A DNA stretch of 64,000 nucleotides from positions 93,140 to 157,139 of the forward strand of contig JANWXW010000048.1 in assembly GCA_025057315.1 (NCBI GenBank), in the 5' to 3' direction. The position numbers were made by a program, and so were the translations under genes. This stretch comes from Myxococcota bacterium (GTDB lineage: Bacteria; Myxococcota_A; Polyangia; Palsa-1104; JAEUJZ01). Positions 8,479-17,951 of this stretch are shown in pieces. The notes beneath the pieces are model-generated. The model worked only from the letters and a program-made list of their open reading frames with translations, was not told the origin of the DNA and made no database searches. Position 1 is the first letter of the stretch; each line of letters opens with the position of its first letter.

Positions 8479-11250
8479 TCACAGCCCCTGCAGCAGCGCG
8501 CGCAGCTCGGCGCCCGGATCGATTTGCAGCCGCGAGGCCATCGCCTCTGCCTCTCGCAGCAGGGCGGCCCCCTGTTCGCTCTGCCCGCACTCGACCAGGT
8601 AGCGGCCCATGCCGATGAGCCCCTGCACCAGCTCTGCCGGGTTGCCCAGCTCCCGCAGCAGCGCCACGCCCCGCCGGAAGTAGACCAGGGCCTTGGGCTC
8701 CCCGCGCTGACCGGCGCCCCCCTCGGCGTCGTACAGCGTCGCCGCGTGCACTTCCCCCAAGGCCAGCAGCGCCCGCGCAACGTCCAGCCGGACCCCAGCG
8801 GCCTCGGCCAGCCGGAGCGCCTCGGTGCAGCGCGCGTGGGCCTGCTGCATGTCGCCCCGACGCAGCGCGATAAGGCCCAGCGATCTCGCTGACTCGGACA
8901 GCAGCCGCCGGTCCTCCAGCTCGCGCGCCAGCTTCTCCGCGGCGCCATAGCGCCCCTCTGCCTCGGCCAGCAGGCCCTGCCTGAGCAGGCTGTCGCCGAT
9001 GTGACACTGTAGCACCGCGCTGAGGGGCTGCGTGCCGGCACTCTCGGCCAGGCCGAGGGCCTCCTCCCACGTACGGCGTGCGCCCTGCAGATCGCCCCGC
9101 TGGAAGGCCAGCATGCCGATCGCGTTGAGGCAGGCGGCGATGCCGGCCCGATCGCCGCACGCCCGGCTCAGTCCCAGGGCCTCCTCGTAACAGGCCGCAG
9201 CTGCATCCAGCAAGCCGCGGTGCCGCTCGATGTTGCCGATGCTGAGCAGCGAGGCGGCGATCTTGCCGCGGTGGCCCAGCCGGCGCCTGATCTCCAGCGC
9301 CTCGCCCGCGCGGCCCAGGGCCTCCTCATAGCGGCCCAGCAGCCACAGCACCTGAGCAATGTCGTCCAGCGTGTCGCTGGTGCCGGCCAGGTCGCCGCTC
9401 TGCCGGAACATCTCCAGGGCCTGCCCCAGGTAGTCCAGGCTGAGCTGCAGCTCCCCCTTCTGCCGCCAGACCTCGCCCATGTGCAGCAGCGCCGAGGCAG
9501 CCTTGCCGCGCGAGGCCAGCACCCATGACAGGCGCACGACCTTCTCATAGGCCCCAAGCGCGTTCTCGTAGTCGCCTCGCAGGTGGAACAACGAGCCCAG
9601 CTCGTCCCATAACCGGATGCGCGTGGCCAGGTCCTGAGTCCCTAGGCAGGCAATGGCTCGCGCCAGCAGCCGGGTGGCCCGCCCATGGGCATAGCGGTCC
9701 CGCGCCAGCCCGGCGGCGCGCAGGTAGCGCAGCGCGGCAGCCTCGCCCTTGCCGGCACGCATCAAGTGCGCACCGATGGCCTCCTGAATCTCCTCCCGCT
9801 CTCCATCGGCCGTCAGGTCCAGCCACTGCGCCAGCAGGCCATGGTAGCACCGCCGCCGTGCCGGCGGGATGCCGTCGTAGACCACATCGCGCCAAGGGGG
9901 ATAAGCGAACCGGTACTGGCGCTCACCGCGGATGCTGCTGTGCTCGATGGGAATGAGCAGACCCCGCTGGCACAGCAGGCGCAGGGCGGCCTTGACCTGC
10001 TGGGTGGTGCGGTCCCCTGCCACGACGATCTCCTCCAGCGTCGGTCCATCCGGGTCCGGCGCGCGGCGGCTCCCCCCTTCCCCAGGGGGCATGCCCAGAC
10101 CCACCTCACCGGCCCGGCCCAGCGCCACCACGGCATCGAGAAAGAAGTGCTCCCCGCAGATGGCCGCATGCTCCAGCACGGTGCGCGTGGCCGGCTCCAT
10201 GGCGGCCAGACGTGCGGCGACGATCTCCTCGAGGCTGCCCGGCAGCTCCAGGGCGGCCAGCCGGCCCAAGTCCCAGCGGGCCTGCTGGCGCGGCGACAGC
10301 GTCAGGGCACCTTGCTCCTCCAGCAAGCGCAGCAGCTCGACGATGGCCCGCGGCGAGCCGCCCAGGTGCTGCGCCACATGATCGGTCACCTCAGGCGGCG
10401 GAGGACCGGCGTCGCGCGACAGCGCATCCAACAGGTGCACCGCGTCTGCCTCGCTGAGCGGCGGTACCTCAATGCGCACACACGGCACCTCGCCCTGGCC
10501 GAAGCTCGGGTGGACCTCGTCGATCTCGGGGCGGGCAAAGGCGCACAGCATCACCGGCGAGCCCGACAGCCCTGCAGCCAGGTAGTGCAGCAGGTTGACG
10601 GACTCTGGCTGGGCATGCTCCATCTCATCAAGAAGCAGCGCCAGCGGACCCTGCGCTGCATCCGCCTGGAGGAATCGCCGCAGGGCCTGGAACAGGCGCG
10701 TCTCGCTGCGCTGGGCGCGCGGCTCAGGCGACCCCTCCTCCGGCAGCTGCAACAGGTCGGCCAGATGCCGCGCCACCTCGGTGCCGCGCGCGCCGGGCAG
10801 CAGCCGCTGACAGAGGCGCTGGACCTTGTCGCGGGCCACCGAGGGCGGGTCGCGTAGGCTCACATCGCAGCGCTGGGCCAACGCCTGCATGAGCGGCCCC
10901 AGCGGCGGGCCATAGGCAGCGCTGCCCAGCAGCACCCGCATCCCACGCGCCGCCAGCGCCTGCTCCAGCTCGCCCAGCAGACGGGTCTTGCCCATGCCCG
11001 GAGCCCCCACCACAAGACAGAAGCGGACCTGCTGCTGCCGGACAACCTCCTCACCCAACGCATCCAGCTGGGCCAGCAGGTCCACCCGGCCCCGCAGCGG
11101 GGTCGACGCCGAAGGCGCCGGGCCCAGACCCGGCAGCGACGTCTCCACCGTCCAGCTCCACCCCTGTGCCGGCTGGGGCGACAGGGCCGCACCACACGCC
11201 TGGCAGCGCGTGGCCCCGGGCAGGGTCTGGGCGCGGCACGCAGGGCACAT
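8479..11250 (-). CDS. Zinc-ribbon / P-loop NTPase (AAA_16-like) / TPR-repeat regulatory protein
   Basis: Start reset to the ATG at 11250, which gives MCPACRAQTLPGATRCQACGAAL (a zinc ribbon). Walker A motif GAPGMGKT. The C-terminal half is made of repeated TPR-like A/L-rich helices (ALG.YEEAL...). Confidence 0.75.
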   Translation of the reverse strand: MCPACRAQTLPGATRCQACGAALSPQPAQGWSWTVETSLPGLGPAPSASTPLRGRVDLLAQLDALGEEVVRQQQVRFCLVVGAPGMGKTRLLGELEQALAARGMRVLLGSAAYGPPLGPLMQALAQRCDVSLRDPPSVARDKVQRLCQRLLPGARGTEVARHLADLLQLPEEGSPEPRAQRSETRLFQALRRFLQADAAQGPLALLLDEMEHAQPESVNLLHYLAAGLSGSPVMLCAFARPEIDEVHPSFGQGEVPCVRIEVPPLSEADAVHLLDALSRDAGPPPPEVTDHVAQHLGGSPRAIVELLRLLEEQGALTLSPRQQARWDLGRLAALELPGSLEEIVAARLAAMEPATRTVLEHAAICGEHFFLDAVVALGRAGEVGLGMPPGEGGSRRAPDPDGPTLEEIVVAGDRTTQQVKAALRLLCQRGLLIPIEHSSIRGERQYRFAYPPWRDVVYDGIPPARRRCYHGLLAQWLDLTADGEREEIQEAIGAHLMRAGKGEAAALRYLRAAGLARDRYAHGRATRLLARAIACLGTQDLATRIRLWDELGSLFHLRGDYENALGAYEKVVRLSWVLASRGKAASALLHMGEVWRQKGELQLSLDYLGQALEMFRQSGDLAGTSDTLDDIAQVLWLLGRYEEALGRAGEALEIRRRLGHRGKIAASLLSIGNIERHRGLLDAAAACYEEALGLSRACGDRAGIAACLNAIGMLAFQRGDLQGARRTWEEALGLAESAGTQPLSAVLQCHIGDSLLRQGLLAEAEGRYGAAEKLARELEDRRLLSESARSLGLIALRRGDMQQAHARCTEALRLAEAAGVRLDVARALLALGEVHAATLYDAEGGAGQRGEPKALVYFRRGVALLRELGNPAELVQGLIGMGRYLVECGQSEQGAALLREAEAMASRLQIDPGAELRALLQGL

Positions 11251-11356
11251 GCCCTTGTGGGTATCCGATCGGGAAGTGAGGCGCAAGAACGCCGCATACA
11301 CCTGGGGCCGCCCCCGGCCAGCCGGGCTGCAAAAATTTGCTCCCTCCTGAAAGCGG

Positions 11357-12331
11357 GTGCAGCATGGCCCAGTGCCGCTCGAGAACCATGGCCCCCCCGA
11401 CGGGACGGAAGGGCCACAGGCCTCCCGTGTGCCCTGCGTCCAGCCGGCCCCCTTCCTCAAGTGGGCTGGCGGCAAGCGACAGCTGCTGCCGGAGCTGCTG
11501 CGCCGTGTCCCCTCGCTCCGCAGCGGGCGCTACTTCGAGCCCTTTGTCGGCGGCGGCGCCCTGTTCTTCGCGCTGCAACAGCGGGGCCTGCTCGGACGCC
11601 GCGGCGCCCGCCTGTCGGACATCAACGCCGACCTCATCAACTGCTACCTCATGGTGCGCGACCAGGTCGAGCCGCTCATCCAGCTCCTGTCCCGGCACCG
11701 CAACGAGGAGACGTACTACTACGCCGTGCGCGCCCAGGACCCCCGCACCCTGGATCCGGTGCAGCGGGCTGCGCGCCTCATCTACCTGAACAAAACCTGC
11801 TTCAACGGCCTGTTCCGAGAGAACCGGCACGGCCTGTTCAACGTCCCCTTCGGCCACTATGCGCGGCCTCGGTTCTGCGACCCCGAGGCGCTGCGGGCAG
11901 CCAGCTATGCGTTGCGCGGCGTGGCCATTGAGCACAGCTCCTTCGAGGAGGTCGAGGAGCTGGCCCAGCCGGGCGACTTCGTCTACTTCGATCCCCCTTA
12001 CGTGCCGCTCAGCCGCACCGCCCGCTTCGTCCAGTACAGCGCCGGCGGCTTCGGGCCCGAACGCCAGGAACGCCTGGCACGATGCGTGGCAACCCTGGCC
12101 GCCCGCGGCGTGAGCGTCCTGGTGTCCAACTCGGCCACCCCCCTGGTGCGGGGACTATATGCCGGCTTCCTGGTGGAAGAGGTACAGGCCAACCGGGCCA
12201 TCAACAGCCGTGGCGACCGGCGGGGCAAGGTCTGCGAGCTGCTCATCCGAGCCGGACCCCATGCCCGGCTCGCCGCCGCGGCGCGTCCGGTGGCACCACA
12301 GGGAGTCGAACCCCGAACCTTACGCGTATGA
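11357..12331 (+). CDS. dam: DNA adenine methyltransferase, Dam / D12 class N6-MTase
   Basis: PFLKWAGGKRQLLPEL, FEPFVGGGA (AdoMet binding), DPPY catalytic motif, and a C-terminal SRGDRRGKVCELLI. The GTG start gives an atypical 30-aa N-terminal extension. The ORF has no stop until 12331 and overlaps the tRNA 3' end, so the true 3' end is uncertain. Confidence 0.8.
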   Translation: MQHGPVPLENHGPPDGTEGPQASRVPCVQPAPFLKWAGGKRQLLPELLRRVPSLRSGRYFEPFVGGGALFFALQQRGLLGRRGARLSDINADLINCYLMVRDQVEPLIQLLSRHRNEETYYYAVRAQDPRTLDPVQRAARLIYLNKTCFNGLFRENRHGLFNVPFGHYARPRFCDPEALRAASYALRGVAIEHSSFEEVEELAQPGDFVYFDPPYVPLSRTARFVQYSAGGFGPERQERLARCVATLAARGVSVLVSNSATPLVRGLYAGFLVEEVQANRAINSRGDRRGKVCELLIRAGPHARLAAAARPVAPQGVEPRTLRV

Positions 12332-12364
12332 AGCGTCTGCTCTGACCGGTTGAGCTATGGTGCC
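12291..12364 (-). tRNA. tRNA-Met (anticodon CAT; elongator, initiator or Ile2/lysidine type not resolved)
   Basis: Manual fold: acceptor GGCACCA/TGGTGCC, D-arm GCTC-AACCGGTCA-GAGC, anticodon stem-loop GACGC-TTCATAC-GCGTA, variable loop AGGTT, T-arm CGGGG-TTCGACT-CCCTG, discriminator A. CCA is not encoded. Confidence 0.75.
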
Positions 12365-15007: not shown

Positions 15008-15210
15008 GCGCCTAGCGTACTGGATGCATCGCGCCCGCGCCATGGGCCGCTGCAGCAAGCGGTGGATCCTCGACGGACATGAGCCCCACACCGCCCGTGG
15101 GCAGAGGCCCGCTGCGGTCGCCGCAACCCCGGACCTCGGGCACGATCGCCCTGCGGGTGCGGGGCCTGTGGGCCTGGGGGACCCGGTCTGGCCATGGCCT
15201 GCTGCAGGAC

Positions 15211-17934
15211 CTAGGGAAGGTCGCGGGCGCGGTGGGCCGCGCTGGAGACGGGCAACTCAGCTGCGGCCACCGGCTGGAGCCAGGTCAGGCCGCCCGCTCC
15301 TGGTCGCCAGGGCGCAGGGGGCCAGCGCAGCGCGTGTCCGGCCGGACCCCGGTGGCAGCGCAGGCAGGCGCTGCCGCCGACGAGCACGCCGCGGCCTGGG
15401 CCGACCACCAGGTGGCCGTCTGCGTCGTAGCTGACGCCCTCCAAGGTGCCGTCTGGGCGTTCGATGAGCAGCTCCACGTCGCGCAGCGCCCCGCTGCCAT
15501 CCATCGTCTGGACCAGGGACAGCCGGTCCAGCCCTGCCCACAGCCGCTGCCGCACGCGCCGGTGGGGCCGCACCCGCGACTCACCGGGCGCCAGGTGCTC
15601 GGGTGGCGCTGCCTGCAGGGCATCGCCCAGCCGCTGAACCAGCTCCCCCAGGGTGGCGGGCAGCTCCCCCCGGTCGCGCCGCAGCCGCAGGATCTCGCCG
15701 TCCAGGTCCGTCCCGGGCGGCTGGCCTGCCTCCCAGGCCGAGAGGCGCTCCCGGTAGGCCGTGCTGTCCAGCTCTCGCACCAGCAGCACGCCGTCGGCGT
15801 CGGGGTCTGGCCGGGGCGCCTCGCCGGTGGCCGCAGCGATGTAGGCTGCCATGCGCTCCAGCGCCTGCGGGTCGCGGGTCGCCGGGCGAAACCGGCGCTC
15901 CGGCTCCAGCGCGGCCGCCGTGCGGTCCAGGGCGGACAGCAGCCCCGAGAGCCGCTCGGACAGCTCCGCCACCTCGGCGCGGGGCAGGCTGAGGCAGAGC
16001 ACGCGCGGCCGCAGCGCCTGGACCGCCCGCCGGACCCCTTCCATCCACATCTGCCCATCGGCTGGTCGGCGCAGGGCCGGAAGCGGGCAGGAACCACCCG
16101 CCTGACAGCCCACGGCCAGCCCGGACAGGGCCAGCTGCATCTCCAGCAGATCCCAGCGCTGCACCACGTCCTGGCCGGCCGCGCTGGTCTGCAGCGTCCG
16201 GCGGAGGCGGACAAAGCTGGCGCTGGCCCGCTGGTAGGCCGTGAGCAGGGCCTGCAGCCCGCCCAGCAGCCGGCCGCTGGCCTGCTCCGGGAAGGTCGCA
16301 GCCAGGGCGCTCAGGCCCGCCTGCTCTGCCTGCAGCATGAGCAGCGCGCCGGTCGGGATTCCATGCCGCGCCAGACGCTCCTCGCCCACGCGGACGACCC
16401 CGTACAGGAAGGGGGGCCGACCGAAGTAGCTGGCCGGCGGATGGAGCCCTGGCAGCAGGCGCCTCAGCGGCGCCAGGGGGTGGAGCTGGTCGGCCAGCAG
16501 CGTGCGCAGGGGCCCGGCCAGGGCAAAGGCACGCAGCAGGGCGCCACCGGGCGGGGCGGCACGGGCGCGGAGCAGCCCCAGCGCCTCCAGGGACGAGGCC
16601 GGCAAGGTGGCCTCCACGGCCACCGGCGCGTCAGGCGGCAGCGCCTCCAGGCGTGCCAGCGCCCCTGGGTCCTCCGGCCGGATCGGGCGAGCCCAGGACC
16701 GCAGCGTCGCCGTGCGGACCAGCAGCGGCCGCGGTTGCGTGCCGTCCTGCTCGCGCAGCACCAGGTAGGGGTAGCCCCGCGGCAGCCCAGAGGCACGCAA
16801 CACCTGCTCGGGTCGATCGAGCGCCTCCTCGAGCGTCGCGGCAGCCAGCGTCAGCAGGGCGGCCCGCTGGGGATGGCCCACCAGCGCCCGCAGGTTGCGC
16901 TGCGCCGGCGGCGCGTCGGCGCGAATCCGCAGCGGCACCATGCCCGCCGGCAGCTGGCGGGCCAGAGCCAGGTCCTCGCTGGTGGCCCCCTCCAGAAAGG
17001 CGCGCAGCAGGGGGCCGCGGAAGCCAACCCGCTGCGCCACCTGCAGCAGCGACTCACCCAGGACCGCAGCAGCCAGGCGGCTGAGCAGGGGCACCTCAGA
17101 GACAAAGGCATAGAGCGAGCGGAGCACCCCCTCCTCCAGCGGACCAAACTGCTGCTGCGCCTGTCGCGCCCAGGCAGGGTAAGGGGGGACCGGTGCCGTC
17201 GCCTCCCGGGCCCATCGGGCCGCGGCCGAGGGAGCCAGGCCGGCTCGCCTCAGGTCAATAAAGGCCGCTGTGCCCTGGGGGCTTCGGGCCAGCGCCGCCG
17301 CATCGGCGCGGGAGGCGGCCCAGTGGCGCATCAGGCGTCGCTGGCGGCGCGCCGGTGGCTCCGCCGGGTCCAGCAGCGCGCCCTCGCGTCGGATCGACCC
17401 GTCGGCCTCCAGCTCGTAGGCCAGGCCCCGCTCGTAGTCGCTGACATGGATGCCACCACGGCCGGTTGTCACCCGCACCAGCACCTGGCCCCCCGCATCG
17501 AGCAGCTCGTGCACGGTCGCCAGCGGGTCGCCCGCTGTGCCGCGGTGCTGCCCCTGCCGCAGGTCGGGGGGCAGCCCACGCAGCAGGTCCTGGAGCGCCG
17601 CCTCCAGGGGGGACCCGCCGGCCTCGCCTGGCCCCTGCCCCGCTGGCGCCCTCACCTCCATGCGCAGCGCGACCGGTGGGAACACATCCAGGGCCCCTGG
17701 TGAAACAGCCGCTGCGGATCGGACCGCCCCCCCCGCCCCCCAGGGGCGTCCGGGCCGCGCACCGGGGCTCGCCGCCGGGCGGGCCGCGTGGCCGTCGCAG
17801 CCGGGCTGGCGCGGGTCGAGGCAGCGCGCGGTGTCCTGGGCCGCCCGATCCGAACCGCGGTGCAGCTGCCAGCTGACCGCCCCCAGAACGCACAGGGCCA
17901 GAACGACGACGATCGCCCGGAGCAGGCCGCTCAT
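15211..17934 (-). CDS. Large hypothetical protein (907 aa) with an N-terminal signal/anchor and a C-terminal CXXCH motif
   Basis: MSGLLRAIVVVLALCVLGAVSW is a signal or anchor. The protein is Ala/Leu/Arg-rich and has ...GGSACLRCHRGPAGH near the C-terminus. The fully overlapping plus-strand ORF (15079..17703) is Gln/Gly/Arg-rich, typical of antisense high-GC sequence, and is rejected. Confidence 0.5.
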   Translation of the reverse strand: MSGLLRAIVVVLALCVLGAVSWQLHRGSDRAAQDTARCLDPRQPGCDGHAARPAASPGARPGRPWGAGGAVRSAAAVSPGALDVFPPVALRMEVRAPAGQGPGEAGGSPLEAALQDLLRGLPPDLRQGQHRGTAGDPLATVHELLDAGGQVLVRVTTGRGGIHVSDYERGLAYELEADGSIRREGALLDPAEPPARRQRRLMRHWAASRADAAALARSPQGTAAFIDLRRAGLAPSAAARWAREATAPVPPYPAWARQAQQQFGPLEEGVLRSLYAFVSEVPLLSRLAAAVLGESLLQVAQRVGFRGPLLRAFLEGATSEDLALARQLPAGMVPLRIRADAPPAQRNLRALVGHPQRAALLTLAAATLEEALDRPEQVLRASGLPRGYPYLVLREQDGTQPRPLLVRTATLRSWARPIRPEDPGALARLEALPPDAPVAVEATLPASSLEALGLLRARAAPPGGALLRAFALAGPLRTLLADQLHPLAPLRRLLPGLHPPASYFGRPPFLYGVVRVGEERLARHGIPTGALLMLQAEQAGLSALAATFPEQASGRLLGGLQALLTAYQRASASFVRLRRTLQTSAAGQDVVQRWDLLEMQLALSGLAVGCQAGGSCPLPALRRPADGQMWMEGVRRAVQALRPRVLCLSLPRAEVAELSERLSGLLSALDRTAAALEPERRFRPATRDPQALERMAAYIAAATGEAPRPDPDADGVLLVRELDSTAYRERLSAWEAGQPPGTDLDGEILRLRRDRGELPATLGELVQRLGDALQAAPPEHLAPGESRVRPHRRVRQRLWAGLDRLSLVQTMDGSGALRDVELLIERPDGTLEGVSYDADGHLVVGPGRGVLVGGSACLRCHRGPAGHALRWPPAPWRPGAGGLTWLQPVAAAELPVSSAAHRARDLP

Positions 17935-17951
17935 GGCGGAATGTTAGGATA

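Follow-up and report, generated by a model that had tools for sequence, protein, structure and literature searches.

A locally solitary Dam-family methyltransferase gene that reads into a convergent tRNA-Met gene in a clade of uncultured Myxococcota

Why does an apparently complete gene for a DNA adenine methyltransferase (Dam) continue, without a stop codon, into the 3' end of a convergent tRNA gene? The question is raised by a 64,000-nucleotide (nt) stretch of contig JANWXW010000048.1 (hereafter, the window), in which a plus-strand open reading frame (ORF) at 11357..12331 encodes a Dam-like protein of 324 residues when read from a GTG codon, as a preliminary description made from the sequence had reported, and ends inside a tRNA-Met(CAT) gene on the minus strand. 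That description placed the locus in a Myxococcus context; the source is in fact an uncultured metagenome-assembled genome (MAG) annotated as Myxococcota/Myxococcales. The explanations to be weighed are a sequencing error, a remnant of a mobile element, an overlap that serves a function, and a passive consequence of how the two genes are placed. We hold with good confidence that the gene encodes a real, solitary, vertically inherited Dam, and that its run-on into the tRNA arises from the geometry of the locus together with its GC content.

The assignment to the Dam family is firm. The 324-residue ORF matches the whole of the PF02086 MethyltransfD12 model (E 1.5e-56; 192 bits, cutoff 22; residues 36-282, model positions 1-253 of 253) and nearly the whole of the TIGR00571 'dam' model (266 bits, cutoff 114.85; residues 31-297, model positions 2-265 of 267). 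Motif I, FEPFVGGGA, can be read directly from the sequence at nt 11534-11560 (residues 60-68 of the 324-residue form) and lies N-terminal to motif IV, DPPY (nt 11990-12001, residues 212-215), of which D212, P213, P214, and Y215 are invariant across 26 relatives. The two family models and the two motifs bear out the earlier claim of a complete Dam-class methylase. A conserved catalytic and DNA-recognition core (PFLKW...ELLIRAGP), supported by PF02086, TIGR00571, and matches to solved structures, occupies 11447..12259 on the plus strand, and an AlphaFold2 (AF2) model of the protein has a confident core (mean predicted local distance difference test score, pLDDT, of 81) with both termini below 50. 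The product is predicted to be an alpha-class (D12, Dam-family) N6-adenine DNA methyltransferase and looks functional.

Which site the enzyme would recognize is best judged from its two structurally characterized relatives. DpnM (M.DpnIIA) of Streptococcus pneumoniae is the GATC-specific alpha-class methyltransferase of the DpnII restriction-modification (R-M) system, and the Escherichia coli enzyme, EcoDam, is a solitary GATC methylase that functions in mismatch repair, replication timing, and gene regulation. DpnM was the best solved-structure match of the window Dam (2dpm; E 1e-61, residues 28-297), and EcoDam (2g1p, 4rtj) matched with an E value of about 7e-43. The window Dam shares with DpnM the order of the motifs (FxGxG before DPPY) and the recognition hairpin FNGL.R...FNVP.G.Y; it differs in having no endonuclease nearby, whereas DpnM is part of an R-M cassette, and in carrying an N-terminal extension and a C-terminal run-on that DpnM does not have. 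The residues with which EcoDam reads GATC are K9, Y119, N120, L122, R124, P134, and Y138 (PMC4417163). Residues K35, N150, L152, R154, P164, and Y168 of the window Dam align with EcoDam K9, N120, L122, R124, P134, and Y138, and F149 stands at the position of Y119, where DpnM also has phenylalanine. Judging by these aligned residues, the specificity of the window Dam is most likely GATC. Against NF008152, the equivalog model for gammaproteobacterial Dam, the protein scored 177 bits, below the cutoff of 441, and we regard it as a member of the Dam family that, to judge from this score, is no orthologue of EcoDam. EcoDam is nevertheless the likely functional analogue. Both are solitary, chromosomal, and conserved in their lineages and share the six residues; the two differ in promoter architecture and genomic context.

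The distribution of GATC in the DNA adds little to this prediction. GATC occurs 245 times in the window against 279.5 expected, and is therefore not avoided, a count that is uninformative on methylation; across the genomes compared it occurs at 3.8-7.9 per kb, about what a Markov model predicts. The codons for DPPY (GAT CCC CCT TAC) themselves hold a GATC, which puts a presumed target site inside the coding sequence of the enzyme's own active site and is probably a coincidence. The preliminary description regarded an intact Dam as unexpected in this group on the premise that GATC methylation is not a known trait there. That premise is weak, since single-molecule real-time sequencing of Myxococcus hansupus reported N6-methyladenine at 31.9% of GATC sites (PMC4765838).

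How, then, does the reading frame come to enter the tRNA gene? ARAGORN places the tRNA-Met(CAT) at 12289..12364 on the minus strand, and Rfam RF00005 at 12291-12364 (63.9 bits), so that the dam ORF penetrates it by 41-43 nt. The tRNA 3' end at 12291 and the overlap of 40 nt given previously agree with these values within 1-3 nt, and the difference comes from including or leaving out the two C residues encoded behind the discriminator base. The dam stop codon, TGA at 12329-12331, overlaps the ATG at 12328-12330 that is the complement of the anticodon (12330-12328). The TIGR00571 model stops at residue 297 and conservation among the 26 relatives reaches A299-G300-P301; the 23 residues that follow P301 do lie, as had been claimed, beyond the conserved Dam C-terminus. 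This run-on tail, HARLAAAARPVAPQGVEPRTLRV plus TGA, is encoded by 12260..12331 on the plus strand, the final 14 codons, stop included, run antisense to the tRNA, and residues 313-324 of the 324-residue form have pLDDT values below 50 in the AF2 model.

The distance from P301 to the tRNA 3' end is 29 nt, and this spacer is GC-rich and has no stop. With stop triplets at 1.56% per codon in the window, the probability of meeting none in 9-10 codons is about 0.85. The preliminary description had treated the overlap as out of the ordinary; for a GC-rich spacer of this length, a run-on is simply what chance predicts. All three plus-strand frames are open from 12111 to the tRNA (>170 nt), and all three close inside it, at 12329, 12343, and 12351. 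These stops fall on conserved parts of the tRNA, namely the complement of U33 and the anticodon (ATGA) and two TGA triplets in the complement of the D-arm. On this reading, translation would pass through the stop-free, GC-rich spacer into the tRNA gene, where the conserved, AT-richer antisense tRNA parts supply the first stops in every frame, and the resulting tail would be a short, unselected, and probably disordered appendage.

Comparison with relatives supports this account. The clade comprises nine genomes, represented by the window and loci L081, L082, L083/84, L085, L086/87 (with L171/172), L088, L089, and L090, and the dam/tRNA-Met arrangement is kept in seven of them. Besides that of the window, the dam frames of L081, L082, L083, L085, and L090 and those encoding proteins P0003 and P0004 continue into this tRNA, at Dam identities of 58-70%. 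At the DNA level, the overlap is 43 nt in the window, L082, and L085, and 63-64 nt in L081, L083, and L090. The relatives' tails end in ...APQG(L/V)EPRTLRV or in ...WHL(R/G)(E/D)SNPEPYAYEASALTS, the same antisense tRNA being read in one frame or the other: those of P0002 and P0006 end in ...APQGLEPRTLRV, and those of P0003, P0004, P0005, P0007, and P0021 carry the WHL(R/G)(E/D) version. Since the relatives use two frames and the spacer varies in length (about 24-72 nt in six genomes), selection does not act on the tail as a peptide. The tRNA itself is well conserved, with a mean column identity of 94% among its orthologues in L081, L082, L083, L086, L090, L172, and L173 and paired changes on both sides of its stems. 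The adjacency of the two genes and their overlap are genuine and conserved, but the lack of a stop is unremarkable, and the run-on into the tRNA is a passive outcome of geometry and base composition.

The same comparison bears on the suggestion, made in the preliminary description, that a sequencing or stop-codon problem had hidden a real stop before the tRNA. It is true that the source is a MAG and that GC-rich regions are prone to error. However, gene P0121 on a separately assembled Logan contig encodes an identical 319-residue protein, tail included, and the window and seven related sequences have no stop before the tRNA, in two different frames; an artefact would also have to contend with the openness of all three frames over the >170 nt before the tRNA. 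The NCBI annotation (P0001, MCS6912804.1, 300 residues) uses the same dam stop. We consider it exceedingly improbable that the run-on is an error.

A quite different possibility is that the tight overlap is functional, such that collision with transcription of the strongly expressed tRNA, antisense effects, or non-stop mRNAs from dam transcripts that finish short of the stop inside the tRNA keep the level of Dam low. The adjacency of dam and tRNA-Met in seven of the nine genomes while the outer flanks change, the short spacer in the six genomes mentioned above, and the lack of a terminator-like structure between the genes would all fit such a role. Three members of the clade, though, manage without the overlap and so show it to be dispensable: L086 has the same tRNA 181 nt downstream of its dam, which ends earlier, at a stop of its own; L088 has lost the tRNA; and in L089 there is none within 372 nt after dam. 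Spacer length and frame also vary freely, and chance alone predicts the run-on. A functional overlap therefore seems unlikely to us. A GAGCCGG/CCGGCTC hairpin noticed by eye in the window was dropped as a candidate structure, as it is not conserved in the relatives. In the literature on antisense overlaps between coding sequences (CDSs) and tRNAs and on leaderless genes in Myxococcota, we found nothing directly relevant.

As for the tRNA, G1 pairs with C72 and the anticodon stem (GACGC/GCGTA) lacks GGG/CCC, features by which it is predicted to be of the elongator and not the initiator type; a blastn comparison with E. coli, which might have told tRNA-Met from a tRNA-Ile2 whose CAU is modified to lysidine, gave no match. 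Its CCA end is incompletely encoded in the window (12289-12291), where the sequence reads ...ACCg. In the dam-less locus L173, the same tRNA-Met (L173:3375-3451) has a full CCA and lies in the opposite orientation about 1.5 kb from an orthologue of the gene that flanks dam on its other side, which suggests that the surroundings of the tRNA were locally rearranged in the past.

Since tRNA 3' ends are classic integration sites and dam abuts one, the methylase might stem from an insertion at tRNA-Met, by a phage or another integrative element, of which it would be the domesticated remnant, as the preliminary description proposed. Dam genes are indeed common in phages (832 phage records match), and more distant Dam relatives occur in mobile-looking pairs of a methylase and a PD-(D/E)XK nuclease. 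The evidence at the locus points the other way. The dam gene has a GC content of about 0.70 and a third-position GC content (GC3) of 0.86, both matching its neighbours, and it is surrounded by housekeeping genes: PilZ, prfA, an FmdB-like zinc ribbon, nth, an O-methyltransferase, NUDIX, a Ser/Thr kinase, an oxoacid:ferredoxin oxidoreductase, and MutS2. Among the genes examined across 0-29 kb, none has an integrase domain; in both respects, native GC and no integrase, the earlier observations held. A search of the 64-kb window with the 24-nt tRNA 3' end, allowing up to 3 mismatches, recovered only the tRNA itself, so the att-like repeat that the preliminary description proposed looking for has no second copy here. 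Identity to the window Dam peaks at 45% among phages (INPHARED) and at 52% in IMG/VR, whereas chromosomal Myxococcota relatives are 64-70% identical. Moreover, the same arrangement occurs in genomes that have diverged to 58% Dam identity and, in L081, to 47% GC; any insertion would have to be ancient and no longer detectable, given that the arrangement recurs in genomes as diverged as L081. A tRNA-targeted island or phage remnant is thus not supported, and we think an origin of this kind very unlikely. Inheritance of the gene is vertical, within a clade of Myxococcota that are uncultured and mostly high in GC.

The preliminary description called the enzyme an orphan, and locally it is one. Among the surrounding genes examined, none encodes a restriction endonuclease or a Vsr- or MutH-like protein. 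The immediate neighbours are the genes for an AAA_16-TPR protein, the tRNA, nth, an O-methyltransferase, and NUDIX, without the adjacent endonuclease that would make this a type II R-M system, and tblastn with the PDDEXK_11 proteins that accompany some relatives found no homologue in the 64-kb window. These partners merit mention in their own right. Small PD-(D/E)XK proteins of about 130 residues (PF20472, PDDEXK_11) are paired with Dam in L003, L004, L006, L008, L010, L014, L026, L039, L073, L096, and L127 (nuclease coordinates are, for example, L003:6825-7223 and L004:5484-5936), and the two genes often abut or nearly so. The nuclease has no name in NCBIfam or PADLOC and may be an uncharacterised small GATC-linked nuclease that acts as an R-M or nicking partner. 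The Dam proteins of these pairs, from Myxococcales, Anaerolineae, cyanobacterial, and other MAGs, are about 50-60% identical to the window Dam; together with unpaired relatives such as L001 (64%), they are its next-nearest relatives outside the clade, some of them in the same phylum. They differ from the clade in the adjacent nuclease, in place of which the clade has a sequence motif of its own, described below.

A metagenome scan turned up no further clade members, and the closest loci in it (63-64% identity) have neither this motif nor the AAA-TPR gene nor the tRNA. In the nearest outgroup Dam loci, which are also 63-64% identical and have none of the three features, a conserved ORF (L001:6794-7591, L091:5794-6588, and L093:5928-6575) of ~265 residues with a hydrophobic stretch and no family assignment overlaps the stop of the outgroup dam; it may be a co-transcribed partner of dam in those genomes.

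If no nuclease accompanies the window Dam, could its divergent neighbour be the missing partner? This gene, at 8479..11250 on the minus strand, encodes a 923-residue protein with a zinc ribbon (DZR), an AAA_16 (STAND-type NTPase) domain, and TPRs (Pfam AAA_16, TPR_12/TPR_MalT) that is identical to NCBI P0124. One could suppose that dam and AAA-TPR work together as a two-gene module for epigenetic regulation or for defence, in which case the methylase would not truly be an orphan. The pair is adjacent and divergent in eight of the nine clade genomes, even though the AAA-TPR proteins are only 44-59% identical within the clade and the outer flanks vary. Yet the orthologous AAA-TPR family extends beyond the dam clade, with members in L173 (47% identity) and L174 (40%) that have neither dam nor the motif alongside, and L081 keeps dam, the motif, and the tRNA without AAA-TPR. 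The tRNA, for which no functional link is plausible, is conserved almost as often (7/9). PADLOC gave a generic TPR match, and no nuclease or effector domain was found. A module of this sort appears improbable, and we treat the pairing as clade-level synteny with a conserved neighbour rather than a demonstrated functional partner. An obligate pair is ruled out by the orthologues without dam, and a defence role for AAA-TPR was set aside, the PADLOC results comprising only the generic TPR match and weak matches.

The AAA-TPR family is sharply bounded, with about 90 clusters of 830-980 residues that are 38-59% identical, beyond which come generic AAA_16/TPR matches near E 1e-39. Some members have two N-terminal zinc ribbons, and the family seems to be specific to Myxococcota (Polyangia, Kofleriaceae). 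In the intergenic region on the AAA-TPR side of the dam motif (11251-11331), and in the aligned intergenic regions of L082, L083, L088, and L090, the start codon of AAA-TPR is preceded at a distance of 12-20 nt by a GTAaCCGA block, which in the window reads GTATCCGATC and carries the sole intergenic GATC, at 11267. A GCGCAAG-like block lies further upstream. The two blocks may represent a short-leader or leaderless promoter of the divergent gene.

A further question is where translation of dam begins. Three GTG codons come into consideration: 11357, used in the preliminary description (324 residues), 11372 (319 residues plus the stop), and 11429, used by NCBI (300 residues). Comparative evidence favours the second, so that the preferred dam CDS is 11372..12331 on the plus strand. 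In all nine clade genomes, a GTG follows an invariant CAGCAT sequence in frame with dam, and the frame is open from there to PFLKW. In L082, L083, and L085, this GTG is the sole in-frame ATG, GTG, or TTG before FLKW, and the Logan gene call, P0121, also begins at GTG 11372. We consider this codon the most likely start; 11357, from the preliminary description, is still possible.

Translation from GTG 11372 would produce an N-terminal extension of 25 residues before PFLKW (11372..11446, plus strand), the existence of which had been recognized correctly. The extension varies in length and sequence, with 26-95 codons between the GTG and the F of FLKW in the relatives, and is predicted to be disordered (pLDDT below 50 at residues 1-15 and 17-22 of the 324-residue form in the AF2 model). 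Between L086 and L171, substitutions at first, second, and third codon positions number 2/2/8 in the extension, 6/1/20 in the core, and 2/2/1 in the intergenic region, and the third-position bias in the extension has a p of about 0.02 (binomial estimate). The pattern points to the extension as a real, variable trait of the clade. In L082 (L082:8060-8200), it contains four tandem 11-residue units (NRAASGASRPE-like; a 33-nt DNA repeat), evidence of how freely this region expands. A conserved N-terminal peptide, 'MxxVP', was considered and rejected: the shared GCAGCATGG lies in different frames across the loci, which indicates conservation at the DNA level, and of this region only the GTG is consistently in frame.

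What is conserved immediately upstream resembles a promoter. At 11332..11365 on the plus strand, an A-tract is followed by TTGCTC (-35-like), a 17-nt spacer, and the invariant (G)CAGCAT (-10-like). The clade layout, in nine of nine genomes, is an A-tract, TTGnnn, a 17-nt spacer, (G)CAGCAT, 6-7 nt, and then the GTG. The combination AAAATTTG-N(19-23)-CAGCAT has a single occurrence in the window, against 0.00 expected, and the motif is present at every clade locus (L081-L090, L171, L172). The exact AAAATTTG is found in all of these except L081, which carries AAAAAATTG instead and fits the degenerate pattern. No other fetched locus has the motif, not even L173 and L174, where AAA-TPR occurs without dam. 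A promoter function for the motif can be inferred from this conservation, and since the invariant CAGCAT sits 6 nt upstream of GTG 11372, and no GGAGG-like sequence precedes this codon, the dam mRNA may be leaderless. A sigma-54 reading of the TTTGC element was rejected because, by eye, the GG-N10-GC spacing is not present in most loci.

The motif may also connect dam expression to the activity of its product. GATC occupies positions 4-7 of the spacer after the -35-like hexamer in seven of nine genomes (L081:7971-7974, L082:7984-7987, L083:5079-5082, L085:4439-4442, and also L088, L089, and L090), including L081 with its GC content of 47%; at this position the window has CCTG and L086 has GATA instead. 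The fixed position hints at methylation-sensitive autoregulation of dam that has been lost in some lineages. A more general clustering of GATC at the dam promoter was dropped, because GATC is frequent overall and only the position-conserved spacer site stands out. A parallel can be drawn with CcrM of the Alphaproteobacteria, a solitary, cell-cycle-regulated GANTC methylase with target sites in its own control region. Both are lineage-conserved orphan adenine methylases that are possibly regulatory, and the spacer GATC in seven of nine dam promoters would be the counterpart of the CcrM sites. The resemblance ends there: CcrM is a beta-class enzyme with a different motif order, a permuted fold, and another target, the two have no sequence relationship beyond the methyltransferase fold, and the window's own dam promoter has no GATC. 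One could go further and picture the clade dam as a self-regulating epigenetic unit, with a dedicated leaderless promoter under GATC feedback, a dosage tuned by head-on tRNA transcription, and possibly the involvement of AAA-TPR. We give this idea a slim chance of being correct. If true, the Myxococcota would have an equivalent of the regulatory circuits built on CcrM and Dam.

Several observations weigh against parts of the account given here. Initiation at GTG 11429 is possible and would yield the canonical short N-terminus of Dam. The third-position bias comes from 12 substitutions within a single lineage. A scan for consensus sigma-70 promoters made no call at the CAGCAT motif, and CAGCAT is a poor match to TATAAT. 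A scan for a terminator between dam and the tRNA was negative, and folds of both strands were no better than those of shuffled sequences (z = -0.18, -0.14); with no terminator detected, the convergent arrangement may be other than neutral. Lastly, the conservation of AAA-TPR beside dam amid varying outer flanks could signal a functional linkage. Even with these points taken into account, we favour a solitary, vertically inherited Dam with a passive run-on.

Elsewhere in the window, in a ~2.8-kb stretch (15016-17943) of about 76% GC, a long plus-strand ORF (15016-17703) overlaps a long minus-strand one (15211-17943). Both have a coding-like GC3 and neither has a Pfam match; the minus-strand product also has no match in NCBIfam.

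If accepted as they stand, these results give the Myxococcota, where adenine methylation has received very little study, a lineage-conserved solitary Dam, and they correct the gene model, as dam probably starts at 11372 instead of 11357 or 11429. They also provide a comparatively verified case of a conserved tRNA gene serving as a stop-codon 'wall' for a GC-rich ORF, in two frames, which should be useful to annotators, who often trim or flag CDS/tRNA overlaps as errors. The most interesting matters that remain are the conserved and possibly leaderless promoter with its position-fixed GATC and the termination of two convergent, overlapping transcripts. If the GATC-bearing, apparently leaderless promoter is functional, it would offer a testable way into the study of epigenetic regulation in these uncultured predators.

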